Source: Heptranchias perlo (Eukaryota). From it: 64,000 nucleotides of DNA. Positions 3,159 through 64,000 of this stretch are shown in pieces. Numbering within the stretch: position 1 is the first letter of the stretch; every line of letters starts with the position of its first letter. The position numbers and the translations under genes are program-made. The stretch is from positions 16,616,001 through 16,680,000 of the forward strand of contig NC_090339.1 of the NCBI RefSeq assembly GCF_035084215.1, given 5' to 3'. The notes under the pieces are model-generated. The model had not been told where the DNA came from and did no database searches. It saw only the letters and a list, made by a program, of their open reading frames with translations.

Positions 3159-3344
3159 AGGGTAGATCTTGTCTTTGAATGATAGTGTAAAATGAGTGAT
3201 AGTGAATCGGCAGCCCATTTTACACCTCTCCTCATTTGTATTTCCACTGAAGTCAATGGAAATAAAACTGGAGAGAGATGTAAAATGGGCTGCTGATTCA
3301 CTATCACTCATTTTACACTATCGCTCAAAGTCAAGATCTACTCC
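3159..3344. mobile_element. Palindromic MITE, TSD ACT
   Basis: AGGGTAGATCTTG ... CAAGATCTACTCC. Arms GATAGTGTAAAATGAGTGATAGTGAATC / GATTCACTATCACTCATTTTACACTATC are exactly complementary. Confidence 0.88.
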
Positions 3345-3483
3345 ACTGTGTTGAGAAAAAAAGTCCAAAGCCATAATTTTGGATCCAAAAACTGGAAATT
3401 CTGAATGCAAACCTTGCATTTGAATTATTCCAATTTACACAAGCTTCTTATAAATAATCCGCAGTGTAACCCTCAAACACCAT

Positions 3484-5251
3484 GGGGGTTATATTGGATA
3501 ACCCCCGAAACTGGGCATGGGGCCATGATGCGCGATTAACCCATGCCCGGTCATTGAGATTCAGGCAGCATGAATTTACCTGATTGCTGCATCCAGCCAG
3601 CGCTACCTGCGCTGTTGAGTGACCATCGCGAGTGGCTAGCACCACTTTAAGGCTGCCTGCACATCTAATCTGCAAAATATAAGATACGGGTCTGCACGGA
3701 GTCTGAACGGCGGTCAGACATCGCACACGTGAAACACAGATGTAGGTCCTGTCCCTATATTTACAAACTGTTGAGTTATTTTAAAACATTGAATAGAGGT
3801 TACGCACTATTAAATCCCACATCCTCCAATCCTCCAGATCCCATCAATCTGCCGATTTGAGTTTGTACAGGCCCTGCGAGAGAGCATGCACCAAGGTTCT
3901 CTGATGATGCACTAGAGCCTGGGTGCAAGAGGTGGACAGAAGGAGGGGCATCCTGTATCCGCAGGAGGCCGTCCAGACATATGCTTCCCAGGAAGTGGGA
4001 GGTAGTAGGGGATGAAGTCAATGCCATGTGCATAGCACCATGAACATGGATGTAGTGCAGGAAGAAGTTCAATGCTTTGACATGAATGGTCAAGGTGAGT
4101 GAGGTCAACTGTCAAGTGGCATCTCCTACCAACTGCATCACTAGCTGCATCCACTGCTCCACGCACTACACCCCCCCATCACACACATACCAACAAACTC
4201 TTTCGATCAGTACTCAACTCTTCCAATCATATGCTTCCTCTCACCCTCAACTCACAGGTCACACGCACTGGCAGCTATTCAACCATGACAGCCGCATCAC
4301 CCAAACATCTTGTAGAACACTCACCGACACACATCCCGCTTTCTTGCAGGAGAAGGTGGCGCATAACAGGAGGCAACAAGTGGCAGTGGCTCCATGGAAC
4401 ATGAACCTGCTGTCCTCTCTCAGGATGACAGCATTCCTGTCCCACCCCTGCCACTCCGCCAGTGCCCTTGCTATTGCCTGTCAACTAGCCAGCCCACTCC
4501 CCGTAGATTGTTGAAACTTTATGATAGGAACATAGGAAGATAGGAACAGGAGTAGGCCATTTAGCCCCTCGAGCCTGTTCCGCCATTCAATGAGATCATG
4601 GCTGATCTGTGACCTAACTCCATATACCCACCATAGCCCCATATCCCTTAACACCTTTGGTTAACAAAAATCGATCAATCTCGGATTTAAAATTAACAAT
4701 TGAGCTAGCATCAACTGCCGTTTGCGGAAGAGAGTTCCAAACTTCTACCACTCTTTGCGTGTAGAAGTGTTTCCTAACTTCACTCCTGCAAGTCCTGGCT
4801 CTAATTTTTAGGCTATGTCCCCTAGTCCTAGTATTCAAGTATAGGAGACCTTCAAAAAAAACAGGTACAAATGCATCAGCAGCCAAAAGCAATAATCCAG
4901 CAACTATTCTGTAACTCCTGCATGATTCCTTTAAATAGCGCTGGTGGGGGGGCCCTCCATGGTGTTTAAGACCTGTTCAGCTATGCAAAGTTAAGACAGT
5001 GCGTTGGCTGGAGCGTGGAATTCCAAAATCATATCTGTCCCTTTAAATCAGCTTGCTTACTGATCTACCGCATATTCTCCCTACTTTACACGGTGCCGAT
5101 GTTCGTTATCTGCGCGTGCGCGAACGCCTTTCTAAGACGGTGTACAGCGTACGTCACACTAGAAGTGCGCACCACTCTGGACACCTTTTTTGTCCTTAGG
5201 AGCCCGCATAGCGCGTACACAATGGACGCCACGCGGCTCAATTTAGAGCCC
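3484..5251 (+). mobile_element. Non-autonomous Harbinger-CR1 chimera, copy 1 (least deleted form)
   Basis: Left end GGGGGTTATATTGGATAACCCCCGAA resembles element B's left end. Myb exon 1 relic, intron 4095-4349, start of exon 2 and a piece of the last Myb exon. CR1 3' end on - at ~4523-4831. Right arm ends CAATTTAGAGCCC. No clear TSD. Confidence 0.85.
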
Positions 5252-14397: not shown

Positions 14398-15035
14398 CTC
14401 AGCCATATAAATACTGTGGTTACAAAAGCAGGTCAGAGGCTGGGTATTCTGCGGCGAGTGACTCACCTCCTGACGCCCCAAAGCCTTTCCACCATCTACA
14501 AGGCACAAGTCAGGAGTGTGATGGAATACTCTCCACTTGCCTGGATGAGTGCAGCTCCAACAACACTCAAGAAGCTCGACACCATCCAGGACAAAGCAGC
14601 CTGCTTGATTAGCACCCCATCCACCACCCTAAACATTCACTCCCTTCACCACCAGCACATAGTGGCTGCAGTATGTACCATCCACAGGATGCACTGCAGC
14701 TACTTGCCAAGGCTTCTTCAACAGCACCTCCCAAACCCGCGACCTCTACCATCTAGAAGAACAAGAGCAGCAGGCACATGGGAACAACACCACCTGCACG
14801 TTCCCCTCCAAGTCACACACCATCCCGACTTGGAAATATATCACCTTTCCTTCATCGTCGCTGGGTCAAAATCTTGGAACTCCCTTCCTAAAAGCACTGT
14901 GGGAGAACCGTCACCACACGGACTGCAGCGGTTCAAGAAGGCGGCTCACCACCACCTTCTCAAGGGCAATTAAGGATAGGCAATAAATGCCGGCCTCGCC
15001 AGCGACGCCCACATCCCATGAACGAATAAAAAAAA
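14398..15035 (+). mobile_element. Non-LTR retrotransposon (CR1/L2 group, poly-A-tailed family), 5'-truncated
   Basis: KAGQRLGILRR, IYKAQVRSVMEYSPLAW. 3' end CACCACCTTCTCAAGGGCAATT...GAACGAATAAAAAAA. Confidence 0.9.
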
Positions 15036-19069: not shown

Positions 19070-19490
19070 TCATCTGCCGTCTATCGAGGAGCAACGGGTA
19101 TCCCTGTTCCTTTACTTGCAGGTCCTGGAGGAGAAAGAAGAGGATCAGAGAAGTTAGGGCAGGTTGGCGCTGTCATTGTGCTGTCTTGAATTTTTATGCA
19201 GCTGGGTCCTTCCTAGGAGACCCAGGAGATGCATGTGAAATTTTCAAACCTGCAGTGCACAGATACATCATGCAGGTCACAGATGACTTATTTGCCTGCT
19301 GAATTCATCAATTTCCCCACGAAAGATAAACAATGACATGAAATAGCCCTGCACTTTTACCATCTGGCTGGATTCAATAAACGGCAGTGATTAATTGACA
19401 GTAAGCATGTGGTGATTTGGGCCCCTATCCAAACGCCATCCACTTTAGGAACAGAGAGGAATTCGACTTCATGAATGTGCAGCTAGTCGA
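19070..19490 (+). pseudogene. Old Harbinger transposase relic, cut by a CR1
   Basis: LNFYAAGSFLGDPGDACEIFKPAVHRYIMQVTDDLFA, ID.KHVVIWAP, FRNREEFDFMNVQLV. Confidence 0.8.
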
Positions 19491-21405: not shown

Positions 21406-21599
21406 TGAGCCAGAACGATATGTTTTTGCACCAGAATAGAGACATGGCTTACAGATTTAACCTTCACTCAACACCACGCCCCCGCATAAGCAGGTATGAC
21501 ATTCCCTTTGGGCATACCCTTGTATGCCGTTATCAAGGGATTAGGAGGTGTAGCACAGGATGGAGCAAATAAGAGTCATGCAGCATTTGAAGAGGTTGC

Positions 21600-22170
21600 A
21601 CACCACCAACTATTACCCATCTCCTAGAATATAAAGGCAGCACAGGTCATATGAGGGCCCCAGTCAGGAGATGTGCATATGAGTGTGCTTCACCAAAGAG
21701 GCTCTGTCACCTAATGCACGAGGACCTGCAGCCATGCTTATCTGCTCGCACTACTCTTTCTGTGGCTATGAAGGTGACCATCACACTTAACTTTTATGGC
21801 ACTGGCTTATTTCAGGAACCACGGGGATCTCCGTGGTAACAGGCAGGCTGCAGCACGAGCATGCATTCATCAGGTCATTGATGTACTTTACAGGAAAGCT
21901 GGCAAATTCATCACCTTTGGCATCACAGCAAGGAACTAGCGAGGTAGGACCATCAAGTTTTAAAGGGTTGCTGGTTTTCCCAAGGTCTAGGGTGCATTCG
22001 ATGGCACCTATGTTACTTTGTGAGCTCTGATAGAAAACCCCCTCAACCACCTCAACAGGAAGGCCTTACACTCCCTCAATGTATAGACTGTGTATGTCAA
22101 CATGCAGAGGATCCTACAAATCAACACCAGATATGCTGGAAGTTGTCACAAAACATTCATCCTTCAAAAT
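21600..22170 (+). pseudogene. Old Harbinger transposase relic
   Basis: LSVAMKVTITLNFYGTGLFQ, AGFPKV*GAFDGTYV, LNRKALHSLNV*. Confidence 0.8.
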
Positions 22171-22191
22171 TAAATCTTCCTGAAAATAAAA

Positions 22192-23425
22192 ACATAGGAA
22201 GGGACATAGGAACAGAAGGAGGCCATTCAGCCCCTCGAGCATGTTCCACCATTCAATTAGACCATGGCTGATCTGTACCTAAATTGTGGCTGGAGTCATA
22301 CCTGGCACAAAGGAAGATGGTAGTGGTTGTTGGAGGCCAATCATCTCAGTCTCAGGACATCACTGCAGGAGTTCCTCAGGGCAGTGTCCCAGGCCCAACT
22401 ATCTTCAGCTGCTTCATCAATGAACATCCCTCCATTATAAGGTCAGAAGTGGGGATGCTTGCTGATGATTGCACAGTGTTCAGTTCCATTCGCAACCCCT
22501 CAGATAATAAAGCAGTCCGGGCTCGCATGCAGCAAGACCTGGACAACATCCAGGTTTGGGCTAATAAGTGGCAAGTAACATTCATGCCAGACAAGTGCCA
22601 GGCAATGACCATCTCCAACAAGAGAGTGTCCAACCACCTCCCCTTGACATTCAACGGCATTACCATCGCCAAATCCCCCACCATCAACATCCTGGGGGTC
22701 ACCATTGACCAGAAACTTAACTGGACCAGACACATAAATACTGTGGCTACAAGAGCAGGTCAGAGGCTGGGTATTCTGCGGCGAGTGACTCACCTCCTTA
22801 CTCCCCAAAGCTTTTCCACCATCTACAAGGCACAAGTCAGGAGTGTGATGGAATATTCTCCACTTGCCTGGATGAGTGCAGCTCCAACAACACTCAAGAA
22901 GCTCGACACCATTCAGGACAAAGCAGCCCGCTTGATTGGCACCCCATCCACCACCATAAACATTCACTCCCTTCACCACCAGCGCACTGTGGCTGCAGTG
23001 TCTACCATCCACAGGATGCACTGCAGCAACTCGCCAAGGCTTCTTCGACAGCACCTCCTAAACCCGCGACCTCTACCACCAAGAAGGACAAGGGCAGCAG
23101 GCACATGGGAACAACACCACCTGCACGTTCCCCTCCAAGTCACACACCATCCCGACTTGGAAATATATCGCCGTTCCTTGATCATCGTGGCTCAAAATCC
23201 TGGAACTCCCTTCCTAACAGCACTGTGGGAGAACCTTCACCACACAGACTGCAGCGGTTCAAGAAGGCGGCTCACCACCACCTTCTCAAGGGCAATTAGG
23301 GATGGGGAATTAAATGCTGGCCTTGCCAGCGACACCCACATCTTATGAACGAATAAAATAAAAGCCCATCTACCCGCTTGGGTTCCGTAATCCTTAATAT
23401 CGGTGCCGAACGAAAACCTACCAGT
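22192..23425 (-). mobile_element. CR1 3' fragment (22192-22283 and 23363-23425) split by the poly-A LINE
   Basis: CATAGGAA tail plus GGCCATTCAGCCCCTCGAG. CR1 3'UTR sequence resumes after the A-tail of the inserted LINE. Confidence 0.7.
22285..23362 (+). mobile_element. Poly-A-tailed non-LTR retrotransposon, RT C-terminal half
   Basis: ORF 22284..23348: WLESYL, AGVPQGSV.GP, LADDCT. Same 3' end as 14398-15035. Confidence 0.93.
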
Positions 23426-23850: not shown

Positions 23851-25110
23851 CAATTTTATTTGATGTGTTGGCTGCATGGCTAAAAAAAAATTACAGGAGG
23901 TGAAGATTTAATATTCAAAGCTTGAAGGTTTAATTCAACCCAAGAGTGAAAGGAACAGAGAGTTTGGGAGGGGGAATTGTCGGGTTGGAGGAGGTTACAG
24001 AGATGGGGTGAGGCCATGAAGGGATTTAAACGCAAAGATGAGAATTTTTAATTTGATGCATGGTGGGCACCACGAGCCAGTACTTTGTCACGATGTTTAG
24101 TCTATGCTATGGTCTAGTGATGAGTTTATTCTATTGCCTTCCAAAGTCAAGGACGATCACATGAGGGCACATGGTAGAGTCAGTAAGCCAAAATACAGTG
24201 AAGAGGATTCCAGTTCAACCCCCAGGCTCACCAGTCAGGATAACTAGAGATGGGCAATAAGTGTGGTCTTGCCAGCATCACCCACATTCTGAGAACAAAT
24301 TAAAATAAAATGACCCAGATATTAGGCAAGTTAAAGCATACTCTGAGTTATAAGGAGTGAGGGAACAAGACCTTGCTCAGGGAAATAGTCTGAAATGCTG
24401 AACCTGATAAAAATTTATAGAGTAAAGACTCAGAAACCTGAAGTGATGATGAAGGGAAAAGAATCCAAACCCTAAGTTTGGAGCTCTCAATACTAAACCC
24501 AGTAGTAAAATCAAATGTAAAAGTGCCATTTCATTCTGTAGAGCTGGAGCTGACAAACATAATGGGCCCGATTTTAGCACCCACTATCGGGTGCGTTCTC
24601 GGCGGGGGGCCCCCGAAAATCGCGAAATCCCGGAGTGGGACCGGATCCCGCCTCGATCCCACCCACTTCCGGGTTCCGTGCTGACGTGCGGGGGTGCGTG
24701 CGCATCCCCCGCTGGTGGGAATCCCGCAGGCAATTAAAGCCAGCGGGATGCCACTTGACAGTATTTATCTAGCTATTTCAGGTCATTAACTGACCTGATT
24801 CAGCTGTCTTATTAGGAAGGGTGGGATTTTTCCTTCAACTGAGACTGTTTCACATACTGGGGGAAACACTCTCACTCCAAACGGACGTGTTGCAGCCAGC
24901 AGCCTGTGGCAGCTGCCAAGGTGCACTCCACAGGGGGGGGTGGGGGGGGCAGACCCTTCACCAATGCAGGAGGCCACTCCGTCACATAGGGCAACGCCTG
25001 CCCTCCACCACCCCCCTCCCAGACAGAAGATACACCGACGTGGAACCGCAGCCCCAGTGCGAGGAAACACCTACCTACCGTGCACAACCCCTCAGACCTA
25101 CACCTGCCAG

Positions 25111-26367
25111 ATGGGGGCCGCCTCGACATCCTCGGAGGACGAACAGCATCACCAGCCCCAGCAGCCTCGCAGTCCACGCCGTCCGCCTCAGCGACGTGGA
25201 GCCCCCCAACACGGTGCTGTGGTACACTCACCTGCACAGCAGGAGGGAGGGCAACCGCAGAGAGAGATGCGTCGCAGGAGACACTACCCTCCGCACAGGG
25301 TCTACAGACCGAGGCTCAGCTTCATGGACCTCTCCGAGGAGCAGTGCATACGTAGGCTCAGAGTCACTCGCCAGGTAGTCGCCGACATCTGCAGCCTCCT
25401 TAACGACGAGCTGCTCCCTGATGGACCAAGCAGCATCTTCTTACCCGTCACCGTCAAAGTCACCACTGCCCTCAACTTCTTCGCCTCCGGATCCTTCCAG
25501 GGTGCCAGCGGGGACATCACCGGGGTCTGTCAGTCCTCTGCACACAAGTGCATAAGGCAGGTCACCGATGGGTTGTTCCACAGGGCCTCGCACTACATCA
25601 ACTTCGCCATGGACGAGCGCAGCCAGATGGAGAGGGCGGTTGGTTTCCATGCTGTGGCTGGCTTCCCACGGGTGTAGGGTGTAATCGACTGCACCCACAT
25701 AGCAATACAGGCACCTCCACATGAGCCAGGTCTGTTCATCAACAGGAAGGGGTATCACTCCATGAACGCCCAGCTCATCCGTGACCACCGCCAGAGATTC
25801 CTACACGTGTGCGCCAGATACCCCGGCAGCTGCCACGATGCCTTCGTCCTCAGGGAGTCCCCCGTCCCGCCCCTCTTCCACGCACCCAACACCGGCAACG
25901 GCTGGCTCCTCGGCGACAAGGGGTATCCCCTGCACACGTGGCTCATGACACCTCTGAGGAACCCCATCACCGAGCCGCAGCGTCGATACAATGACAGCCA
26001 CATTGCAACCAGGTCTGCAATTGAGCAGGTCATAGGGCTGCTCAAGATGCGCTTCAGGTGCCTTGATCGTTCTGGGGGAGCGCTCCAATACACGCCACTC
26101 AGAGTGGGACGAATTATAGTTGTCTGCTGTGCCCTGCACAACATGGCCCAACAGAGAGGGGTGCAGCTGGAGGAGGCCCCATCCACACCCGCCACCCACA
26201 TTGAGGACGACGATGAGGAGGAGGAGGTGGAGGAGGAGGAGGTGGAGGAGGAGGAGGGGGAGGAGGAGGACGAGCGCGAGGATGAGGAACGACCCATGGG
26301 CCGAACACTGGCTCACTGGGATGCTAGCCAGGCCAGGGAGGCACTCATATGTCAACGGTTCTCCTAG
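25111..26367 (+). pseudogene. Harbinger DDE transposase (HARBI1-like) of element A, one in-frame TAG at 25675-25677
   Basis: ORFs 24940..25677 and 25762..26367 are in the same frame. Motifs: [30 protein letters not shown] (D1), [27 protein letters not shown] (D2), [18 protein letters not shown] (E), CCALHN, acidic tail. The start at ATG 25111 is inferred. Confidence 0.93.
26203..26289 (+). repeat. (GAG)n-rich low-complexity tract encoding the transposase acidic tail
   Basis: GAGGAGGAGGAGGTGGAGGAG... translates to [29 protein letters not shown]. Confidence 0.9.
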
Positions 26368-26666
26368 GATCAGACAGTCTGAGGCGTTCACATCTCATCA
26401 CGTGCACAGACGAGGGGCCATACCAGCCCCCTCCACAGAAGAGTGGTGCCAGTACTCCTGCACCCACTGTAGTGTGCCCAATGGGCGGGACCAGGTGTTC
26501 GTCGTCATGATGGCCCGCACGGAAGGAACCTATTGCACAAGCCGCAGAAGAATGGACGAGAGGTGGCAGGAGTGGTGAGAACGATTGTGTTTACTCTGTA
26601 CTTAGTGAACGACTATAAACAAAAACATTACAAATTGACAGACACCCTGGTGCATTCCCTTTGTGC

Positions 26667-28504
26667 TTATAACACCCTTGGCTTACGTTTACGGGAACCC
26701 CTACGTGGTGCTACCCCTGTGGCTCCAGCAGAGGTAGTGGCAGGTTGCTCCTGTTCGTGCCCTGACCGGGTAGATGCTTTGGGCTGACGCCCCCTGGGTT
26801 TCGGTGCCCGTGAGGGCACCTCCACAGACTGCTCCTCCTGCACCTGTGCAGGGGCAGACTCGGCCACCTGGAGAGGAGGCACCATTGCGGGTACTGGTTG
26901 AGAGGGGGGCAACGGGTGAGACGTGGGGGCACCTCGAGTAGCGTCCCAGCTTCCATGTCCCCATTCACCATCATCCCTCTCATGGCCTCGGCCCACATCA
27001 CCCCTTCCACCCTGCTGGACGACAGTTTGGATGGCATGTGTGAGGCCTTGCAAGGCCACCTCTAGTGTATCCGTCAGCCCGTTTATGGCGGCAGAATGTT
27101 GCTCACCCTGAATCCGAACAGCCGTTGTCAGGGCCTGCATGGACTCGATGTTGAGCTGTGCGTGCCGCTCGAGGGAGGCTAGCCTGTCCTCCACCGCAGA
27201 CGTTCCCGCACCTACCCGCGACACTATGTCGCTGATACCCTCCTGTACCTGCGCCACCAATGCCCGCATGCAGGAGTTGGACTCCTCCATCACCTGCGCG
27301 ATTGTGGACAATGCGCGTGGCACCTCTCCCAGTACCTCGGCAATGTGCTGGTGCCCCTCGACGACTCTCCTTTTGACTGGTGGCCCCCTGGGTTCAGCAT
27401 CTGGGTCCGGCTGAGCAGAGCCTGGAGAAGAGTGCTCCCACCGACGCTGACCCTCCGCGGCTGCCCCTGCCACCAGGGTCTGCTCATGCTCACACGTGCG
27501 CGGTGACTCACCATGTGCAACCCCAACTAGTTGGTGAGGGGGACCCACCGAGGTGTGTGTATCTGCGCTGGTGGGTGGTTGGCTCATATGTGATGATGGA
27601 CCCTCAGAGACCGGCATGTCCTCTGAGGAATCGCCCTCCTCACACACAGCGCTCGCAGACGGCCCTGCAAGAGAACAGAGGGCAATATCAGGCATGTGCA
27701 CAAACGTTGCGGTGCGGCAGATGCCAGGTGATGCTAAGGTCATTCGCGATCATGAGTGCTGAGTGTCAGCTTTCCCTTACCGGCCGTTTCTGCAGCCCCA
27801 GCCTCGCCATCCGCCACGGAGAGGCAATGTTGCGTGCGGCTGATATCCAGCGTCTCCACCTCTGCGTCCGTCAGTACCAGCAGGTGTGGCGGGCCCCCTC
27901 CGGTGCGGTCCCTTTCTCTGGCGTTCTTGCATCTCTTCTCCTGTCAAGGCAAAACACAGATGCGTGAGTGAGTGCAGATTGCATAGTGAGACGCCTCAAG
28001 CATCGGTGTGGGTGGGTTGAGCGTGGGGCAGATGGATGGGAGGATGCGTGTGCCACATGCCCATCCCATTGCATGGGGATTGGGGTGTGTGGTAGTGTTC
28101 GAGTGGGGACAGGGACGGTGGGTAGGTGCAGGCACGGTGAGGATGGTAGTTGAGTGGCTGTGAGGATTGCTGTGGGAGCGCTGTGGTGGCTGTGCAGAAG
28201 GGGTTGTGAGATGTTTGGCGTGATTTTGGAGACGGGTTGTGGGAGGGTGCATTAGTGTACTCACTTTGCCGGACCTAGTGAGGTCATTGAATCGCTTTCT
28301 ACACTGCACCCATGTCCTGGTGGTGCTGCCCCTGCTGCTGACCTCCGCCTCCACCTCTGCCCATGCCTTCCTGGTGGCGGAGCCAGGGCTCTTCCGTCCG
28401 TCACTCGGGAACAGCGTGTCCCTCCTCCTCCTCACACCATCCAGCAGCAGCTGGAGCGGGAGGTCCGAAAACCGTGGTGCAGCCTTACCCCTGGGGTGCT
28501 CCAT
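26667..28504 (-). CDS. Myb/SANT-like (trihelix) DNA-binding partner protein of element A; 3 exons 28504-28265, 27940-27781, 27664-26667; 465 aa, no stops
   Basis: Exon 1 MEHPRGKAAPRFSD...AWAEV...RTWVQCRKRFNDLTRSGK then GTGAGT. Acceptor TTGACAG, exon 2 EKRCKNARERDRTGGGPP...ETA then GTAAG. Acceptor CTTGCAG, exon 3 in frame with ORF 26667..27743 ending RRGSRKRKPRVL*. Exon lengths 240+160+998=1398 nt. Confidence 0.88.
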
Positions 28505-28550
28505 GGTGTGCTGCCTCTTGTTTGCAGCTGGAGGGGCTTTGGTGGACTGC

Positions 28551-28562
28551 CCCTTTAAATAG
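28551..28562 (-). promoter_or_regulatory. TATA-like box (CTATTTAAAGGG) upstream of the element A Myb gene
   Basis: About 47 nt upstream of ATG 28504. The same motif recurs upstream of other Harbinger ORFs in the window. Confidence 0.5.
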
Positions 28563-29984
28563 AGCTCCACCATCGCGCGAACGTCAATGCGCATGCGCAG
28601 GCCGCCGGCGCGCAGCTGGGGAGCGGAGAACCCGTAACCACGGCTTAATGGCATCAATTATCCCGCGATCGCGCGGGGGGTGCACTCATTTAGCCGTCCG
28701 CGTTTTCCACGCTCCCAATGGACCACCCGCCGGGAACCCACAGGCCTGCTAAAATCAGGCCCAATGTGTATGAATAAATGGGAGGAAACTATGTGCACTT
28801 ATTTCTGGAAGAAGAGGCTTAGTATCCCAGAACAGGAGGGAGAAATTATGGATAGACTTTATGGGAAGAGCTAAAGAAGTAGCCAAATTTGGTACTAGAA
28901 CCTCGCAAATCAATATACAACAAGACCTAGAAAAGAAGACTGCAGTTTGACAGCAGCATTTTTGTAAAAAAATAATCTCAAGTAATAGTGCCATTGATTG
29001 ACTTTTATATGACTCTTCCTGGAAAATGAGAAAACCTTTTTCATTATTGAGACTAAATAGAGTTATAGAGTTGGAGAAGTGGGAGGGCAGAATTTCGTCA
29101 GGGGTTCCTCAGGCCTCCCACCTTAACTCCAGCAGAGAGCCCTCAACATTGACAGTGGTGACTTGCAATCAGTCCATCAATATTATTCATAAAGCCCAGA
29201 GATTCACAGAGAGTAATAAGCTGTTCTATCCAACAGTATTAGTGGGAGGAATTATCCATGTTGTAGCTATAATAGGTAACGGCTCAATGGCTTACATCAT
29301 CAGGGAGAGGACTGAGCAAAGACGTAAAATAATAGGATCCATCACTGACCCCACAACTCAGAAGAACTGGATGTCATCTTAATGGGATGAGGGGGACAGA
29401 AGGTTAGACCCACAGCCATTTGTGATTTACAGTTAAAGATACTTAGCACTAAAATGTTAGTCATGGTTTGATGGTCCCAAGCCAGTGCAACAACATGATC
29501 ATAGGTACAAATGTCCTTAAGCACTTACTAGGCAATTGAAGGGGACTAAGGTTTATTGGAGATAACTCTGACTTATGAGACAAGAGGAAGAGCAGTAAGC
29601 TTCATGACTTACTAGCAAACCTAACTAGGTAGAGGGTTAAGGAAATCCCAAAGAGAGTGGAACCACAAAACTCCAGCAAACAATTTATGAGAATAATCAG
29701 TTCTAACACTGCAACACTAAATTCCCTGACATTAGAATAATAGAATTCTTGAATATTACAGAACAGAAACAGGCTATCAACCCCACAAGGCTGCACCAGA
29801 ATCGTTCTCCATGAGTCGTCTGGTCTAGTCTAATCATCTAGTCTAATCTCTCTTTTCATACCCTTTAATATTTGTTTTTACAATCAAATATTTAATTACT
29901 TTTTAGAAGAATTAGTGGACTCTGTTTCAGCAATGGCTTGTGGCAGAGGATTCTATATCCTAACCATCCTCCATTAAAGACTTT

Positions 29985-31669
29985 AGGCGCTAAATTGGGC
30001 CATGTAGCGCCCGTTGTTTCGGCACTACATGGCCTCTCCGACATCCAAGATGGCTTTTTGGATGCGGACACACGTTCCCTGCGTGACGTGCGCCAGACGC
30101 CATCTTGGTATAGGAGTTTGCGCAGGTGCAGATAACAAATGCTGGAATCATGTAAAGTAGGGGAAAAATGGCTTCAATCAGTGTACAATGCTGACTTAAA
30201 GTGATAGACACCATTTTGGGACGTAACGCTCAACTCAATGCACAATCTTAACCCCTACCATCTGAACATGTCTCAGAGTGGCTGGAGGACCCCCCACCGG
30301 CGCTATTTAAAGGGACCATGCAGGATTTACAGGTTAGTGGCTAGATTATTGCTTCTGGCTGACGAGAAATTTGTAACTGTTTTTGGAGGTCTCCTAGGCT
30401 TCAATACTAGGACGCGGGGACATAGTCTAACATTTAGAGCCAGGATGTGCAGGAGTGAAGTTAGGAAATGCTTCTACATGCAAAGGGTGGGAGACGTTTG
30501 GAACACTCTTCTGCAGACGGCAGTTGATGCTAGCTCAATTGTGAATGTTAAATCTGAGATTGATAGATTTTTGTGAACCAAGGGTATTAAGGAATATGGG
30601 GCTAAGGCTAGTGTATGGAGTTAGGTCACAGGTCCACCATGATCTCATTGAATGGTGGAACAGGCTCGAGGGGCTAAATGCCACGGTGACTGGCTGCCTC
30701 TTGATATGCGCCACCTTCTCCTGCAAGAAAGCGGGACGTGTGCCTGGGTGATGTGCCTGTCATGGTTGAATAGCTGCCAGTGTGTGTGGCCTGTGAGTTG
30801 TGGGTGTGTGGCTTGAAACAGTGGTAATGTGTAAGGGTGAGAGGAAGCATCTGATTGGAAGAGTTGATTACTGATGGAAAGAGTTTATTGGTATATGGGG
30901 GATGGGGGGGTGTAGTGCGTGGTGCAGTTGGTAGGAGACGCCACTTGACAGTTGACCTCACTCACCTTGCCCACTCATGTCAAAGCATTGAACTTCTTCC
31001 TGCACTGCATCCATGTTCATGATGCTGTGCGTCTGGCATTGACTTCATCCCCCGCTGCCTCTTACTATCTTCTGACTTTATATCTGGAGGGCCTCTTGCC
31101 GCCCCCCCAGCCTCCTGCGGATATAGGATGTCCCTCCTTCCGTCCACCTCTTGCACCCAAGGCCTCTAGTGCACCAGCAGAGAACCTTGGTGCATGCACT
31201 CTCGCAGGCCTGGTATCAACTCAGATCGGCAGATTGGTGAGGTCTGGTGTGCAGATTGGAGGATGTGGGATTTAGTAGTACGCAATCTTTATTTAATGTT
31301 TTAACATAATTCATCAGTGTGTAAACATAGGGATGGGATCTGCATCTGTGTTTTATGTGTGCAATGTCTGATCTCTGTTCAGACGCCATGCAGACAGTAG
31401 ACTGTTATTTTCAGCAAATAACAGGTACCAGATACCTTTAAGAGATTTCTAAGAAACATCCTCCCCTTAAGAGATTGAGTTCCCTCTGATGGTAGAAAGT
31501 GCAAATTGCATTGATTCCACATGCAAGGCCTGGAAAGGAACGCCGATTGCAGGTAAGTGCTCCCGTGGGTCCAAACTTGCGTCCTGCCTGCGCAGGGTCT
31601 GTCGGGCGTGGGGTGGTTGCGCATCACGATACCACCGCCCAAAACAGACCCTTATTGAATTTTTCCCCC
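29985..31669 (-). mobile_element. Non-autonomous Harbinger-CR1 chimera, copy 2
   Basis: Reverse-complement homolog of 55608-57271 with TTT on both flanks. CR1 piece at ~30405-30681. Confidence 0.9.
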
Positions 31670-32352: not shown

Positions 32353-32520
32353 TGGGGTAAATTTTCTAAGTAAGCGCCACCAATGTGTATCCAAAAATCA
32401 CAGATGCGTTTTCCATTTTTGATGCAATGGACAGAAAATTGCAAGCCATATGCTTACAAGTTTCTGATCTGTTCTAGTGGTGGGTGCTTGTTGTTAGCAC
32501 ATAGTTGGAAAATTTAGGCT
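32353..32520. mobile_element. Degraded MITE
   Basis: GGGGTAAATTTTC ... GAAAATTTAGG ends, central CCATTTTTGATGCAATGG. Confidence 0.45.
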
Positions 32521-41700: not shown

Positions 41701-41849
41701 AGTTGGAATTAGGCAACAACAGAAAGAGAATACAGCAAATTATAGCATCATCACTCTATAGTGGCTGGTAGAATTAAAGGGGTCGATTTTGAATTTTGGA
41801 CAACCAAGCAATGGAGCATGCTAGCCAGTCACCAAACCCGCGGCGAAGA

Positions 41850-43934: not shown

Positions 43935-45142
43935 CTTCAGTTGCATATTTTAGTGAAAGAATTCATGACACAGAAATTGGGCAAATCAGAAAGCCATAAC
44001 TCAGAGCAAGGATAATGCCAAGGCCAGAACTATCCCCTAAAAATTAATAACATTTGACAGAAGCAAAAGATGCACAAGGATGGAGGGGGTGGCTGAATGA
44101 TTGCAAAGAGTGGCCCCATATTTAACATCGATCAAGTGTGAACAAGGGTGGAGCTGTAATTCCACAAAATTATTGACTGCCACGGGATGAAAGGTACCAA
44201 TAATCTTTCATTCCATGAGTGAGAAAAACAACTCGGCCAGCAAATCCTTACATTGTTTTTTTTGTATTTAATGTATTATATTGTGCCATTCACTGTATAA
44301 AAACATCAAATAAGCTTTGAGGACAACTTCCACTCATTGTGCTAAGCATTTACAATTTGTACAAAGGATTGAAAGAAACATATAAATAGAACAGAGCAGT
44401 CAGCACTAAGTGGGCCTTTCATGTGACAATTTTCTGAGGGATCAGATGGAAAGATATTCCCAACAAAACCTGCCTGCTAACTTTTTGATGAGCCTGCTGT
44501 GATATACTGATTTCAGCCAATTCCACTCTCCTCACTCCCTCAATCACACATAATTGATACCTGGAGCTCTGATACTGCTTCCCACGTGCATAACTTTAAA
44601 CCGTCCAATGGTTATTTAACAAATGCCGATCGTCCACTAGAAATTCGATGTGCCACGCCTATTTTTCAGGTGCTAAACGGACACCTAAGTATCCAATATG
44701 GAGGGCAGGGAGCACGTGCTCATTACAAGCTGGAAGTGCGCTGCCCGCCATATTAGTACAGACAAAATATAGGCGTTCAGAGCCCGCGCCTGAAACAGGC
44801 ATTAGGCCCATTCCATAAGCAAATAAAGGGCTAATGCCTGTTTGAGGCCCCTTGTGCAATATTAGGCCATAAGGGGGCCGCTGCAGGCCACCACCAAAAC
44901 AGTGGGGGTTAAATTCGATAACCCCCGAATCCAGGCGCGGGTATCACGTGATTAATCCGCGCCCGGTGCTTCCGATGCAGGCAGCACGTGAGATTCGTGC
45001 TGCCTGATCATCACCATGATCATCACATGCAGCCATGTTGCACGCACCAACAGGAGGCCTGAAATGGGGCATGGCCAGCACTAGTTAAAGGCAGCCTGCA
45101 CCTCTTAAAGGGGAGGTCCACAGTCAATGAAAGCAGTGGAGG

Positions 45143-46998
45143 ATGACAGGAAGGATTGCTGGACCGGCAATAGAGTGCACACCAAGGCTCTTGGACGATG
45201 CACTAGAGGCCCTGGTGGAGGGAGTGAATGAAAGGTGGGCCATCCTGTAACCACAGGTTGGTAGGAGACCCTCCAGACACCAGCTGCATGGGCAGTGGGA
45301 GGGAGTGGCCCAGGAGGTGAACGCCAGGAGCATGGCACCATGCATGTGGGTGCAGTGCCAAAGAAAGTTCAATGATTTGACATGAGTGGTCAAGGTAAGT
45401 GAATGCAAGTGTCAAGTGGCACATCCTACCAACTGCACCACTGCTCCACGCAAAACCCCCCCCTCACCCACCCACCAACACACGCTGCCCATCCATGCAC
45501 AATACTGCACTTGGAATGCTGCATCTCACCCTCGCATAGTGCCACACAACCACCACTCACAGGTCACACACACTGGCAGCTATTCGACCATGACAGGCAT
45601 ATCACCCAGACACCTTGCAGGATACTCACTGACACACTTCCCTCTGTCTTGCAGGAGAAAGTGGCGCATAACTGCCAGCAGCAGGAGAGACCTGAGGGAG
45701 GACAGGCACGCCTACAGGTCCTTACCCCTCTGGAGGAGATGGTGCTGCAGATCATTGGCCTGGCCATCATTGCGGCCGTGGCCACTGGCGGCGCTGGAGG
45801 TCCCGATGAAAGGGGTCTCTGCATTTCTAATCCTCCTTTTCATTTCCCACATCTCCCTCATCCCACAATCTTTTCTGATGCACGTGCTGCAGATGGTGCC
45901 AGTACACATGTCTTACTCGCTCCTATCCCCACTCCACAACACAACCCGTCTCCCTACATTGCAGGTACCCAAGAGCTGGAGCCGGCACTGTCCGACGAGG
46001 AGGAGGAGGGGGACTCTGAAGCCATACCGTCATTTGATCTGACACTCGCATCCACCAGGTCAGATGCTGACACTGCGCGTCCTTTAGAGGATAGGTTCGA
46101 GGAGGGATCTGCACGTAGTGAGACACCGGGCACAAGTGCGCAGGAGCCTAGGTGGGGGGGGGGGGGGGGAACAGATACCACAGATGCCAGCTCACCGGAG
46201 GGTGAGGTCGCTCAACGTTCTGCTGCTGAGGAGTCAGATGATGACTTCGATGGGCCAGGCTACAGAAGACGGCTGATGGGTGTACACCACCACAGTGCTT
46301 AGTGCACTGGAAAGCCTGTCAGAAAGCTTGCACACGATGTCAGGGAGCATGGAGGAGTCCACCTCGAACTTGGCACAGGGCTTTGCGGAGAGTTTGGAAC
46401 CCTTTTCTACATGGAACGGACGGTCACCTCCATCAGCACACTTGTGGAATTCACCATGATGCAGCATCTGATGACCAGTCGCGGCTTCCATTGCAGCACA
46501 AACCGATGTCATCAAAGGTCTGCAAGCTTTGGTTGAAGCTCAGACTGCTGCAATGGCAGCTCAGACTGATGCTATTGTGGCTTTGGGTACCACTGTGGAA
46601 CAGGGCAGTCCGTTCTCCAGCTGATCACCATGAGAGCTGAGGCGCCGCCCCGTGTGAGTGGCAGTGGCGCCATGGCAGTCGAGCCTGCTGTCCTGTGTCC
46701 GGATGACAGCATTCCTGCTTCCACCCCTGCCACTCCTCCAGTGCCCTTGCCGTTGCCTATAAGCAAGCCAGGCCGGACTCTTGCAGCCCATGCTGAGATG
46801 GTGCAGTCTGAAGCCGGTCCCTCTCGGCCGAGAACTGCTCGAGGTCGTCCTCCACGGCCATCTGCACGCTCCTCCATTGAAGGTCAGCAGCCTCCCACCA
46901 CCCACGCTCCAGCCACTGGGAATTCACCTCGTAGGAGCACTAGGATAGGTAAAGGCACACAAACAACAGGCACTAAGGGAACACACAAGGTTGAATAG
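45143..46998 (+). pseudogene. Myb/SANT-like gene of element B (decayed, spliced)
   Basis: PR..DDALEALVEGV...WEGVAQEVNARSMAPC.WVQC.RKFNDLT*VVK, donor GTAAGT after 45394. Acceptor CTTGCAG, exon from 45655 EKVAHNCQQQERPEGGQ. Ser/Pro/basic C-terminus to 46998. Contains stops and frameshifts. Confidence 0.8.
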
Positions 46999-47195
46999 TC
47001 TCATTTTGTTTGCATCATTTCATGTGTTCATTCATAAATGTGAATTTAAATTTGCATTTGGTGGTGATTTTTATTTCTGCGATGAGCTGAGGGAGGAAGC
47101 AATGTGTAATCATATGGAGGGTGATTTGATGGTCATGTGGGAGAGGACGGGTGGGGAGTGTACAACTGTTGGCGACTTGGGAGATGTTGTTCACG

Positions 47196-48062
47196 TTATT
47201 GATATCGCTCACGGATCAGGTGAGCATGCCGAGCCCTGGCAGACAGGGCCAGTGTTCCTTGTTGCCCCCTTGCATCTTCCTCCACATTCCTCTCCGTCTC
47301 CTCCCCCTCATCCTCAGCCTCCTCTGGCTCAGGGTCTTGCCAGATAATCGATGGCAAGGGCTGTTTCTTCTTAATGGTGAGGTTGTGCATCATGCAGCAT
47401 CCCACAATGAATCTTGACACCCACTCAGCAAAGTACTGCAGGGCTCCACCAGAACGGTCCAGGCAGTGGAAGTGTTGCTTTAGGACGCCTATGGTATGCT
47501 CAATGACATTGCTTGTGGCAGCATGGCTGAGATGACATGTGGAGCACGCATGGCAATAAGCATGCAGTCAATGGCACCCTGCACCATGGGGAAGCCTGCA
47601 ATGTGAGCAAACTCTTATGCTCGCTCGTTCTACTTCTCTCTTTCAAGAGGGAACGTGATGAACCTGTTGCACATCTCGTATGGTGCTTCCATAACTTCCC
47701 TTTTGCAACAGTGCACTGCACATTGTGAGATGTTGCACAGCTCGCCAGCAGAGGCTTGAAAGGATCCAGAGCTATTGAAGTTCAATGGCACGAATACCTT
47801 CATAGCCTCAGGCAATGCTGTCCTTGCCCTGTTCTGAGGCTGTAGTTGTGGCTGCAGCAGGTGACAGATCTCTGTCATGACCTCTTTGGTGATCCTCGCT
47901 CATCTGGAGGTAAGAATATTGTTCCCTGAAGGCCCTCATGGGATATGGCCTCCTGCTCCTCCTCCTCCTCCCTCTCCTTGCAGTTTGACCTGGTCTGCGT
48001 GGTCTTTCAGCATGCTCCCAGTCATGTTCTATGCCGAGTGGGAGCCCTAGCAGACCACCCAT
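47196..48062 (-). pseudogene. Harbinger transposase of element B (frameshifted, internally deleted)
   Basis: MGGLLGLPL...RRPYP, LNFNSSGSFQASAG, AGFPMVQGAIDC, then jumps to H.ATS...[14 protein letters not shown] and GCCMMHN. The NRKG..GD segment is missing. Confidence 0.85.
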
Positions 48063-48123
48063 GGTTGCCAGGAATCTTGTTCAAACACTGTTGTAAATTA
48101 CACCAGCTGTAAGGCAGTACCTG

Positions 48124-48165
48124 TCAAATATACTATAGCAACTCTCAAATATACTATAGCAACTC
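48124..48165 (+). repeat. 21-bp perfect tandem duplication TCAAATATACTATAGCAACTC x2
   Basis: Read directly from the sequence. Confidence 0.9.
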
Positions 48166-49279
48166 TCTGTAAGTATAGGAAGCTTCAACAAACACGTCCT
48201 ATTCTGCCAGCAGTCAGAAGTAATAATCTAGCAACTAACCTGCAACACCTGCATGATCCCTTTAAATAGCGCTGTTGGGGGTTCCTTCAGGCTGTCTAAG
48301 ACATGTTCAGGTGTTCGTGGTTAAGACAATGTGTTGAGTGGAGAGTTAAGTGCCAAAATGGGGTCTATCACTTTAAATCAGCGTTGCACACTGATCTAAT
48401 GCATATTCTCCCTTCTTTATGTGCTGCCGGCATTTGTTATCTACGCTGCGTGAAACCCTTTACCAAGATGGCGTCTGGCACATGTAATGCTAGAAGAGTG
48501 CGCATGCATTCCAGACGCCCTTTTGGAACCCACATAGCACCGAAGGAACAGGTGCTACACGGCTCAATTTCTAGCCTGGTGTGCGTTTAAAAAATACTTG
48601 CTGAACGTGGATCCCAGAGGTCCAGGAGTGCTCCTCCTAGCTCCACCACGGGCCGCTATCGGCCGCCACTCTCCCCCTTCCTGATGTCCTGATTGCCCCT
48701 ATCCCGGTGTCGCGATCGCCCCCCTTCTGATCGTCATCCTCTTCCAGTTGCCCTCCTCCCGTACGCCTTCCCTTCTCTTTTAACCACTTGCCTGGGGACG
48801 GCCAGCAGGTGTTCACAGCTGGCTGGTCTCATTTAAATCAGGCAGGAGGCCCAATATTTGGTGGGCCTTGGGCTTACCCGTTCAGGTGCAGGGGCCGCTC
48901 CCTTGCGTCCAGTTCACGTAGGCAGGCGCGAACGGATTTCTAAGCCAATGCTTCTTAAGATACAAACATTAATTCAATATTATGAAAAAATGGTCCAAAA
49001 TTCCAATGATCCTGTTGCGCCATCATAAGAGAAGTGGGATGGGGCAGGACTTACGGTTGCCATGACATTGTAGCAGTAGATCCACTGTAAATTGCGAGGT
49101 CAGATCACTTACATAGTGAGAGGCATACAGGCTGTGCAAATCCAATCTGCAACATCTCACATATATTGAGGGGGCGGAAATCTCACAAAGAACCAGAACC
49201 AAAAGTTAGGCCCAAATGTGTCCCGAATGGTTGGCAGTGGGATGGCGGGCAGGCAGAAAATAGTGGACTCTCATGAGCT

Positions 49280-55607: not shown

Positions 55608-57271
55608 GGGGGAAAAAAAATTGGATCGAGGCAATTTTTGGGCGCAGGCAGAGTGATGCGCTATTACCCCGCGCCCAGTGACCCCTGCGCAGGCAGGACG
55701 CATGTTTCGGCCATCCTGAGGACTCACCTGCAATCAGCATTCCATTCCAGGCCTTGTACGTGGAATCAATGCAATTCACATTTTTCATCACTGGGGAAGC
55801 TCAATCTCTTAAAGGGAGGATGTTTCTTAGAAATCACTTAAAGGTAGCTGGTACCTGTTATTTGCTGAAAATAACAGTCTACTGTCTGCACGGAGTCTGG
55901 ACGGAGATCAGACATCGTACATGTAAAACACAGATGCAGATCCCATCCCTATGTTTACACACTGATGAGTTATGTTAAAACATTGAATAAAGGTTGCACA
56001 CGACTAAATCCCACATCCTCCAATCTGCATGACAGGCCTCACCAATCTGCCGATCTGAGTTAGTACCAGGCCTGCGAGAGTGCATGCACCAAGGTTCTCT
56101 ACTGATGCACTGGAGACCTTGGTGCAAGAGGTGGACAGAAGGAGGGGCATCCTATATCCACGGGGGTGGGGGGGCAAGAGGCCCTCCAGGCATATGCCCA
56201 AAAGGCAATGGGAGGCAGCGGGGGACGAAGTCAATGCCAGGCACACAGCATCATGAAGATGGATGCAGTGCAGGAAGAAGTTCAATGCTTTGACGTGAGT
56301 GGTCAAGGTGAGTGAGGTCAACTGTCAAGTGGCGTCTCCTCCAACTGCTCCACGCACTACACCCTCCATCCCCCACATACCAACAAACTCTTTCCATCAG
56401 TAATCAACTCTTCCAATCAGATGCTTCCTCTCACCCTTACACATTACCACTGTTTCAAGCCACACACCCACAACTCACAGGATACACACACTGGCAGCTA
56501 TTCAACCATGACAGGCACATCACCCCAGACACACGTCCCGCTTTCTTGCAGGAGAAGGTGGCACATATCAGGAGGCAGCAAGTAGCAGTGACATTTAGCC
56601 CCTCGAGCCTGTTCCACCATTCAGTGAGATCATGGTGGACCTGTGACCTAACTCCACATACCCGCCTTAGCTCCATATCCTTTAATATCCTTGGTTCACA
56701 GAAATCTATCAATCTCAGATTTAACATTCACAAGTGAGCTAGCATCAACTGCCATCTGCAGAAGAGTGTTCCAAACGTCTCCCATCCTTTGCGTGTAGAA
56801 GCATTTCCTAACTTCACTCCTGCACGTCCTGGCTCTAAATGTTAGACTATGTCCCCGTGTCCTATATTTGGAGACCTCCAAAAACAGTTACAAATGTCTC
56901 GGCAGCCAGAAGCAATAATCCAGCCACTAACCTGTAAATTCTGCATGGTTCCTTTAAATAGTGCTGGTGGGGGGGTCCTCCAGGCACTCTAAGACATGTT
57001 CAGATGGTCGGGGTTAAGACTGTGCATTCAGTTAAGAGTTAATTCCCAAAATGGTGTCTATCACTTTAAATCAGCGTTGCTCACTGATTGAAGCCATTTT
57101 CTCCCTACTTTACATGATTCCAGCGTTCGTTATTTGCGCCTGCGCTAACTCCTACACCAAGATGGCATCGGCGCACATTACGTTGCATGCGCATCCAAGA
57201 CACCATCTTGGATGTCGGAGATACTGTGTAGCGCCGAAACAACGGGCGCTGCACGGCCCAATTTAGGGCCC
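55608..57271 (+). mobile_element. Non-autonomous Harbinger-CR1 chimera, copy 3
   Basis: Ends GGGGGAAAAAAAATTGG ... CCAATTTAGGGCCC, TSD TTT/TTT. Inserted into an old CR1 ORF2. Confidence 0.92.
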
Positions 57272-62546: not shown

Positions 62547-64000
62547 GGGGGAAAAAAATTGGATAGGGCCTATTATTGGGCCAGGGTAGCCCGATCCGCT
62601 ATTGCTCTGCGCCCAATGGCCCCTGCGCAGGCAGGGCAAGACTTTCATCAGGCCTGAGGACTTACCTTCAAGCAGGGTTCCGAATCAGTGTTGACACAAG
62701 GATTCAATGCAATTCACACTTTCCACCAGCAGGGGGAGCCCCAATCTCTTAAAGGCAGGCTGTCTCTTAAAAATCTCTTAAAGGTAGCTGGTAGCTGTTA
62801 TTTGCTGAAAACAACATTCTGTTGTCTGCACGGAGTCTGAACGGAGATCAGACCTCGCACATGCAAAATACAGATGCAGCTCTCATCCGTATGTTTACGA
62901 ACTGATGAGTTATGTTATAACATTGATCGTGCACTACTAAATCCCACATCCTCCAATCTGCATGTCAGACCTCACCAATCTGCCGATCTGAGTTGATACC
63001 AGGCCTGCGAGAGTGCATGCACCAAGGTTCTCTGCTGATGCACTAGAGGCCTTGGTGCAAGAGGTGGACAGATGGAGGGATATCCTATATCCGCAGGGGG
63101 CTGGGGGGGGGGGGGTGGCAGGAGTTCCTCCAGACATATACCCAAATGGCAGCAGGAGGCAAGCGCACAGCATCGTGAACATGGATGCAGTGCAGGAAGA
63201 AGCTCAATTCTTTGACATGAGTGGTCAAGGTGAGTGCGGTCAACTGTCAAGTGGCGTCTCCTACCAATCGCGCCACTAGCTGCATCCACTGCTCCACGCA
63301 CTATACCCCCCCCACCCCCCCCATCACCCACATACCAACAAACTCTTTCCATCAGTACTCAACTCTTCCAATCTGATGCTTCCTCTCACCCTTACACATT
63401 ACCACTGTTTCAAGCCACCCACCCACAACTCACAGGCCACACACACTGGCAGCTATTCAACCATGGCAGGCTCATCACTCAGACACACGACCGGCTTTCT
63501 TGCAGGAGAAGGTGGCGCATATCATGAGGCAGCAAGTGGCAGTGGCATTTAGCCCCTCGAGCCTGTTCCGCCATTCAATGAGATCATGGTGGACCTGTGA
63601 CCTAACTCCATATACTCGACTTAGCCCCATATCTCTTAATACCCTTGGTTCCCAGAAATCTATCAATCTCAGATGTAGAATTCATAATTGAGCTAGCATC
63701 AGCTGCCGTATGCAGAAAAGCATTCCAAACTTCCCTCACCCTTTGCATGTAGAAGCATTTCCTAACTTTGCTCCTGCACATCCTGGCTCTAAATGTTAGG
63801 CTATGTCTCCTAGTCCTAATATTCAAGTATAGGAGACCTCGAAAAACAGCTACAAATGTCTCGGCAGCCAGAAGCAATAATCCAGCCACTAACCTGTGAA
63901 TACTGCATGATCCCTTTAAATAGCACTGGAGGGGGTCCTCCAGACACTCTAAGATATGTTCAGCTCTGCGAGGTTAAGACTGTGCGTTGAGTTGAGCGTT
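62547..64000 (+). mobile_element. Non-autonomous Harbinger-CR1 chimera, copy 4 (runs off the window end)
   Basis: Same left end, Myb exon 1 relic, intron 63230-63505, CR1 junction at ~63546 and right arm as copies 2 and 3. Confidence 0.9.

Follow-up and report, generated by a model that had tools for sequence, protein, structure and literature searches.

The window analyzed here is the whole of a 64,000-nt stretch from the shark Heptranchias perlo (NC_090339.1, positions 16,616,001 to 16,680,000); it has 45% GC and is dense with LINE pieces and Harbinger-like elements. By self-comparison, four related Harbinger-like elements (copies 1 to 4, Table 1) together make up 10% of it. All four retain a Myb/SANT exon 1 (E 2e-12 to 6e-6 in tblastn, with the Pfam-confirmed Myb ORF of element A as query), the start of Myb exon 2, and TATA-like words and splice sites; a DDE transposase is absent from every one of them. 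A LINE piece is placed between the inward-facing Myb and transposase promoter regions, and facing this LINE there is a right-arm TATA-like word, located ~317 nt from the right end. The original prediction of one layout in four elements holds for Myb exon 1, the intron, the exon 2 start, the antisense LINE and the right junction, but not for the left side, where the left arm is divergent and copy 1 has 168 extra nt at the LINE junction, keeping 121 nt of the last Myb exon, a 24-nt spacer and the complete LINE tail.

Table 1. Harbinger-like elements of the window and the internal parts of copy 1 (positions counted from the first nucleotide of the window).
Feature	Position	Strand	Remarks
Copy 1, long-core type, whole element	3484..5251	+	Flanking triplets CAT / TAC, no match
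Copy 1 left arm	3484..3689	+	TIR short and imperfect; resembles B (75% over its first 87 nt, E 9e-10)
~190-nt segment	3690..3878	+	Common to all four copies (82-90%); B lacks the segment
Copy 1 Myb/SANT-like exon 1	3879..4094	+	Decayed, with in-frame stops
Copy 1 Myb intron 1	4095..4349	+	Best-conserved segment (91-97%); GT/AG intact in all four copies
Copy 1 Myb exon 2 stub	4350..4378	+	Joined to the last exon through a ~970-nt deletion
Copy 1 Myb last-exon piece	4379..4499	+	84% to B 46657-46774; copies 2-4 retain only the first ~11 nt
Copy 1 spacer, 24 nt	4500..4523	.	Confined to copy 1, where it separates the Myb piece from the LINE tail
Copy 1 CR1-type LINE 3' end	4524..4836	-	5'-truncated; ORF2 C-terminus, 3'UTR hairpin, 8-nt tandem-repeat tail
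Copy 1 right arm	4837..5251	+	Transposase upstream region and right TIR
Copy 2, short-core type	29985..31669	-	AAA/AAA duplication inside an A run; LINE piece ~30400-30680
Copy 3, short-core type	55608..57271	+	TTT/TTT duplication; LINE piece ~56592-56866
Copy 4, short-core type	62547..64000	+	Cut by the window end; LINE piece ~63546-63824
Element A	24564-28762		Near full-length Harbinger-like; transposase (+) and Myb (-) convergent; clear TIRs; AAT duplication
Element B	44904..48577	+	Decayed, two genes (Myb +, transposase -); layout reference

Two parts of copy 1 have no counterpart in element B. Neither the ~190-nt segment nor the 24-nt spacer gave a meaningful match elsewhere in the masked window, nor did the spacer in B, and Rfam, which matches nothing anywhere in the window, has none for the segment; the segment may derive from a long Myb leader in the true parent or represent a second cargo. 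Two open frames were considered as possible genes and rejected. A 120-codon frame across the LINE/arm junction in three of the four copies, a would-be fusion gene, has no in-frame ATG in the arm part of copy 1 and no Pfam match, and a 61-codon frame running from Myb exon 2 into the antisense LINE in copies 2 to 4 is preceded by an exon 1 with stops. A protein search with the ORF spanning right arm and LINE returned no match, as did a search of the LINE C-terminus against longer proteins. Of 150 HMMER matches, 33 extend into the arm-derived part by at least 15 residues, with 14-42% identity, and in that part the four examined from this set are ordinary LINE ORF2; no copy of the junction from outside the window was found among the HMMER matches, all of which are LINE C-termini.

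The transposase of element A (DDE_Tnp_4, E 3e-36) is closest to shark proteins named 'putative nuclease HARBI1' (Pristiophorus, Heptranchias, Scyliorhinus and Heterodontus, up to 66% identity), and is broken by an in-frame stop at 25675-25677. Element B shares its arms and Myb gene with the four copies, and its transposase matches DDE_Tnp_4 just under the cut-off (E 5e-5); its Myb exon 1, like that of each copy, matches the Myb_DNA-bind_5 ORF of A. Because B is only 68-80% identical to the four copies, it is their relative and not their direct parent. No intact helper element lies within the window, given the stop in the transposase of A and the decay of B. Smaller Harbinger-like pieces are also present: a 187-nt miniature element with Harbinger-like ends and an ATT duplication at 1019-1205, a palindromic piece related to it at 3183-3350 (80% over 75 nt), and a transposase scrap at 19186-19293, with further Harbinger-like end motifs at 32353, 34380-34402, 36376-36405, 42366 and 44620-44860 that suggest more small derivatives.

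The 3-bp duplication of Harbinger-like (PHIS) elements is exact in two of the three complete copies. The TWA duplication given for strict PIF/Harbinger in the relevant part of PMC4482050 was not seen, the duplications found being TTT, AAA, AAT and ATT, and because of this difference the elements are best filed as Harbinger-like (PHIS) only, not as strict PIF/Harbinger. Among Myb-bearing and related elements of the window, the duplications or left flanks at 24561-24563/28763-28765, 1016-1018/1206-1208 and 44901-44903 are AAT, ATT and AGT, that is, ANT-like and not TWA. The TIRs of the copies are ~12-14 nt long and imperfect, of the form GGG...AATT as in B, whereas the usual Harbinger TIR is 25-50 bp, and an inverted-repeat finder did not detect them. 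Compared with vertebrate Harbinger as outlined in parts of PMC9179366 (and PMC4482050 for the PHIS groups), the window's elements are alike in their Myb/SANT gene and DDE_Tnp_4 transposase, their ends starting with GGG and their 3-bp duplication, and unlike in that the four copies have no transposase, the TIRs are short and imperfect, and the duplications are not TWA.

On the minus strand of copy 1, the cargo comprises ~73 ORF2 codons with a stop at 4614-4616, followed by a 3'UTR and an 8-nt tandem tail. Its C-terminus has 4913 relatives at E<=0.001 (HMMER). Twelve long relatives were scanned, of which eight carry RVT_1 (two of these with an endonuclease as well), three are host-gene models with a LINE piece attached, and one has no domain; the cargo is also 58% identical to the end of an RT ORF in the window (40551-41708). 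Because of these RT-bearing relatives and this similarity, the cargo is the 3' end of an RT-encoding LINE, which bears out the prediction of an antisense LINE ORF2 C-terminus and 3'UTR inside the elements. We take the LINE to be of CR1 type from its motifs, the cargo itself having no RT. The 3'UTR hairpin and tandem-repeat tail are found in copy 1, and a free copy at 40461 has the same hairpin, with folding z-scores of only -1.5 and -0.7. A search of the PDB found no relative of the window's RT. The window also holds three copies of a younger LINE family (14400-15035, 22727-23362 and 39873-40451; 92-93% identical) that differs from the cargo. Three database proteins (P0006, P0047 and P0123) combine such a LINE C-terminus with HBS1-like, amino-acid permease and BBS7 domains, combinations that are probably gene-model artefacts or exonised LINE ends.

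The LINE 5' junction with the right arm falls, as predicted, at the same place in all four copies (4831-4837 in copy 1, with 8 nt missing from copy 3 at this point). It joins a point equivalent to ~48171 of B, ~110 nt upstream of B's likely transposase start and ~90 nt inside a TATA-like word. The ~970-nt deletion that joins Myb exon 2 to the last exon (B 45683 to 46657) is likewise common to all four. The CR1 piece had been proposed to replace the entire transposase together with the Myb C-terminus. The transposase is indeed gone, but there are two separate losses relative to B, one of ~970 nt within Myb and another of ~1390 nt that spans the Myb end and the transposase, and a portion of the C-terminal Myb exon persists in copy 1. 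Among themselves the embedded LINE pieces have 86-93% identity, compared with 41-65% to nine longer free CR1-like ends of the window, against which they form a clade with support of 100/100. The predicted monophyly is thus seen in what is a weak test, since the window has no long free copy of the same LINE subfamily, and the only piece of a similar subfamily, a ~90-nt free tail at 22191-22282 (83% to copy 1), was left out of the tree.

Shared damaging changes are stronger evidence of one origin than the cargo tree. Copies 2 to 4 share K7T, H20C, V27G/R, P34L and F46V/S at residues conserved among 150 database relatives, and I8F at a position that is otherwise L/I/V, the derived residues occurring in at most 2% of these relatives; a stop in the LINE frame is common to copies 2 and 3. 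Copies 2 to 4 were therefore copied from an already dead piece, and by DNA copying instead of from an active LINE master, because such a master would not pass on damaging changes. The synonymous share between copy 1 and copies 2 to 4 (6/16, against a neutral expectation of 22-28%) comes from a sample too small to be used alone. Three derived features are common to the four copies: the LINE 5' junction, and the Myb deletion and ~190-nt segment, on neither of which the original prediction drew. Taking these together with the cargo clade, unrelated flanks and 3-bp duplications, we consider it highly probable that, as proposed, the LINE piece was captured once and the element then amplified as a non-autonomous DNA transposon.

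The cargo did not remain 'fixed', as it had been described. The 168-nt deletion of copies 2 to 4 is identical to the base and takes with it the LINE tail and half of the 3' hairpin, and because these three copies share it, the cargo was trimmed after capture, in their ancestor. Stringent LINEs require a 3' hairpin and tail, according to the part of PMC3747384 that deals with them, and copies 2 to 4 have lost the LINE 3' end that such LINEs need.

The element boundary was set from element A (AAT/AAT) and the 187-nt element at 1019-1205 (ATT/ATT). With this boundary, copies 2 and 3 have exact 3-bp duplications and copy 1 mismatched triplets, and the chance of at least two exact duplications in three is 0.001, or 0.012 for A/T-rich targets; both exact duplications lie in mononucleotide A/T runs. 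The triplets flanking element B agree at two of three positions. Seven 300-nt flanks of the four copies are unrelated, sharing nothing longer than 21 nt (best match 17 nt, E 0.006), so that no shared flanking sequence is seen; homology between copies ends at the element ends, and copy 2 is inverted. Judged from these boundaries, the copies very likely spread by transposition and not by duplication. Segmental or tandem duplication, or gene conversion within the region, would suit the density of four copies in 64 kb, as well as copy 1, which lacks a matching duplication and resembles a core copied between foreign arms. It is nonetheless improbable to the point of being a minor concern, since homology stops where the elements do, the flanks are unrelated, orientations differ, and copies 2 and 3 each have their own 3-bp duplication; gene conversion may explain copy 1 alone. 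We give hardly any credence to movement of the element as RNA, SINE-like, with the transposase promoter driving and the LINE tail and LINE reverse transcriptase completing the cycle: the copies include both arms and the promoter side, retain an intron and run ~1 kb past the LINE 3' end, and copies 2 to 4 are without the tail and half of the hairpin, even though the LINE piece is in sense downstream of the right-arm TATA-like word and copy 1 retains the 3' hairpin and tail described for stringent LINEs in the same part of PMC3747384.

How the LINE piece arrived can be considered along similar lines. CR1-group elements make up 22-34% of elasmobranch genomes by the figures given in PMC13343379, because of which a LINE landing in a Harbinger is to be expected, and several LINEs might have inserted independently, by target-site preference, into an already amplified and deleted Harbinger derivative. 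A contact of this kind exists in the window at 21581-22282: a decayed Harbinger transposase fragment ends at ~22175 and is directly followed by a ~90-nt antisense LINE tail (83% to the copy 1 cargo) and then by another LINE. This unrelated contact is independent, with breakpoints that differ from those of the cargo copies. The left LINE junction of copy 1 also differs from that of copies 2 to 4, but the difference is a simple nested deletion, base-identical in those three, and with the 5' truncation point identical in all four copies and both non-conservative and nonsense changes shared, repeated insertion is extremely unlikely. On balance we favor a direct insertion of the LINE, with an accompanying or later deletion, as the probable route: the piece is tail-complete and 5'-truncated, and in copy 1 its frame is unbroken and its branch short (0.018). 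A serious competitor, to which we give somewhat less than an even chance and which implies the same single origin, is that template switching in the course of gap repair copied the piece from a locus in the genome, a capture like that of Pack-TIRs. It would account, as well as insertion does, for the 24 nt of sequence beyond the LINE tail that are neither Harbinger nor LINE, and for the coincidence in place of the large Harbinger deletion; such capture is documented for animal TIR elements in the portions of PMC8277862 on this process and argued for Anolis hobo in those of PMC3014272. Against it, the natural LINE 3' end is no more than 24 nt away from one of the boundaries, the piece had barely decayed when acquired, the copy 1 frame still being open as for a fresh insertion, and no donor locus is present in the window.

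We hypothesize that a Harbinger-like (PHIS) transposon with two genes was deprived of its entire transposase and of the central part of its Myb gene, and that on a single occasion it would have taken up the final ~313 nt, 5'-truncated, of a CR1-type LINE, immediately downstream of the transposase promoter region. With both ends retained, the element could be mobilized by cut-and-paste through transposase and Myb proteins acting in trans, and the LINE piece would multiply as a passive passenger. One descendant would then have lost 168 nt including the LINE 3' tail, giving rise to copies 2 to 4, and recombination with other Harbinger-like elements would have swapped outer arms, leaving the same core with different ends. 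We hold this history of capture, trans-mobilization, trimming and arm exchange as a whole to be very probable; within it we infer the trans-mobilization, the order of events, the mechanism of insertion, and recombination as the cause of the arm differences. Harbinger transposition needs both proteins, as stated in the Introduction of PMC9179366, and movement in trans, which had also been proposed for this non-autonomous family, follows by inference because the element has no transposase and a dead Myb. To call the family a 'class I/class II hybrid', as was done, is an overstatement, since the LINE piece is carried passively and shows no sign of contributing to mobility.

The ends of the copies have diverged differently from the core. 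Between copy 1 and copies 2 to 4, identity is 82-84% in the ~190-nt segment, 85-86% in exon 1, 91-94% in the intron and 86-87% in the LINE, whereas the left arm of copy 1 is 53-55% identical to theirs and 65% to that of B. In the distal 270 nt of the right arm, copy 1 is 68-70% identical to copies 2 and 3 and 72% to B, and of the informative sites, 86 of 116 in the core group copy 1 with copies 2 and 3 against B, as opposed to 19 of 72 for that distal part of the arm (Fisher p 1e-10). Copies 2 to 4 are themselves only 64-74% identical over their first ~180 nt (31490-31669, 55608-55790 and 62547-62730), with 11-18% transversions, versus 88-91% identity and 2-4% transversions in the remainder (p <= 4e-6). 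CpG decay was rejected as the cause of this divergence: identity barely rises when CpG columns are removed, and transversions are 3-4.5-fold higher. Because the ends of copy 1 differ far more than its core, one core travels with more than one set of ends, and the copies are not a single uniform family. The best reading of these comparisons is that outer arms were exchanged by recombination with other Harbinger-like elements. It is possible that the arms instead simply evolved fast; arm and core trees agree in their unrooted five-taxon topology and differ in distances alone, and a global aligner gives 58-62% on shuffled arms, which is close to some of the arm values. Whether by exchange or by fast evolution, the most interesting point here is how unevenly the outer 180 nt have diverged, and it is one that a specialist might pursue.

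The closest parallels are the hobo-N7 to N15 families of Anolis carolinensis (hAT), for which the sections of Novick et al. (PMC3014272) on these elements describe non-autonomous DNA transposons amplified with an embedded CR1. The same sections report that hobo families also embed Chapaev, Penelope and SINE pieces, that embedding raises the copy number of the passenger, that later partial deletions of the cargo define subfamilies, and that recombination between elements swaps ends, giving elements with the termini of one group and the center of another. The deletions, and probably the end swapping, have their likeness in the shark copies. The differences are that hobo is a hAT element in a lizard and the present elements are Harbinger-like in a shark; that the hobo families are young (<10% divergence), whereas the shark copies are 7-14% apart in the core; and that in the shark one tail-complete LINE end forms the cargo, flanked by a pair of promoter regions that face inward. 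Animal Pack-TIRs, as treated in part of Tan et al. (PMC8277862), are alike in being TIR elements with a foreign internal filler of a few hundred nt, whose multicopy cases were amplified by transposition, but their filler is host sequence with a traceable parent and the shark cargo is a LINE end; the word 'Harbinger' is absent from the main text of that paper. Ricksha (MuDR), in mammals, is a non-autonomous DNA transposon that multiplied together with a retroelement fragment lodged inside it. It belongs to another superfamily with another class of cargo, and the entry for it in PMC5753468 lists it as MuDR with no description of the cargo. The novelty implied by the original prediction is not supported, the Anolis families of PMC3014272 already carrying a CR1 insertion and swapping ends in the sections cited: the cargo-carrying DNA transposon is the same biology as Anolis hobo, and what would be new is its Harbinger-like member in a shark. 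We found no description of a CR1-carrying Harbinger in sharks in the literature, beyond the scope of which Repbase, Dfam, subscription journals and supplements may hold one.

Four copies in 64 kb correspond to a Poisson 95% range of 17-160 per Mb if the copies are uniformly distributed, a range derived from a single window that was chosen for interest. That choice and the breadth of the range leave room for the four copies to be a local cluster of a family that is modest genome-wide. DNA transposons can hop locally. A local cluster is nevertheless rather unlikely, in that the divergence among copies 2 to 4, at 9-12% for the body and 26-36% for their first 180 nt, suits sampling from a large, old family better than a single local burst. 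Should the family prove large, transposase-copied LINE 3' ends would enter counts and age estimates as products of retrotransposition, and each element would be broken up by automatic tools into a CR1 piece between two Harbinger pieces.

It is tempting to speculate further, although we think it improbable, that the core may be a long-lived cassette of tens of thousands of copies, kept mobile by repeatedly taking the arms of active Harbinger-like families. Such a cassette would supply a sizeable, DNA-amplified share of the annotated CR1 3' ends of sharks and, because its LINE end lies between inward-facing Myb and transposase promoter regions, could yield antisense or double-stranded RNA against the dominant LINE of the genome. 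A 2022 survey (PMC9179366), in its coverage of cartilaginous fish, reports Harbinger as absent in the elephant shark and leaves other cartilaginous fish open. The present elements point to Harbinger-like elements that are abundant and recombining in one cartilaginous fish, and their relevance is mainly to the annotation and dating of repeats.
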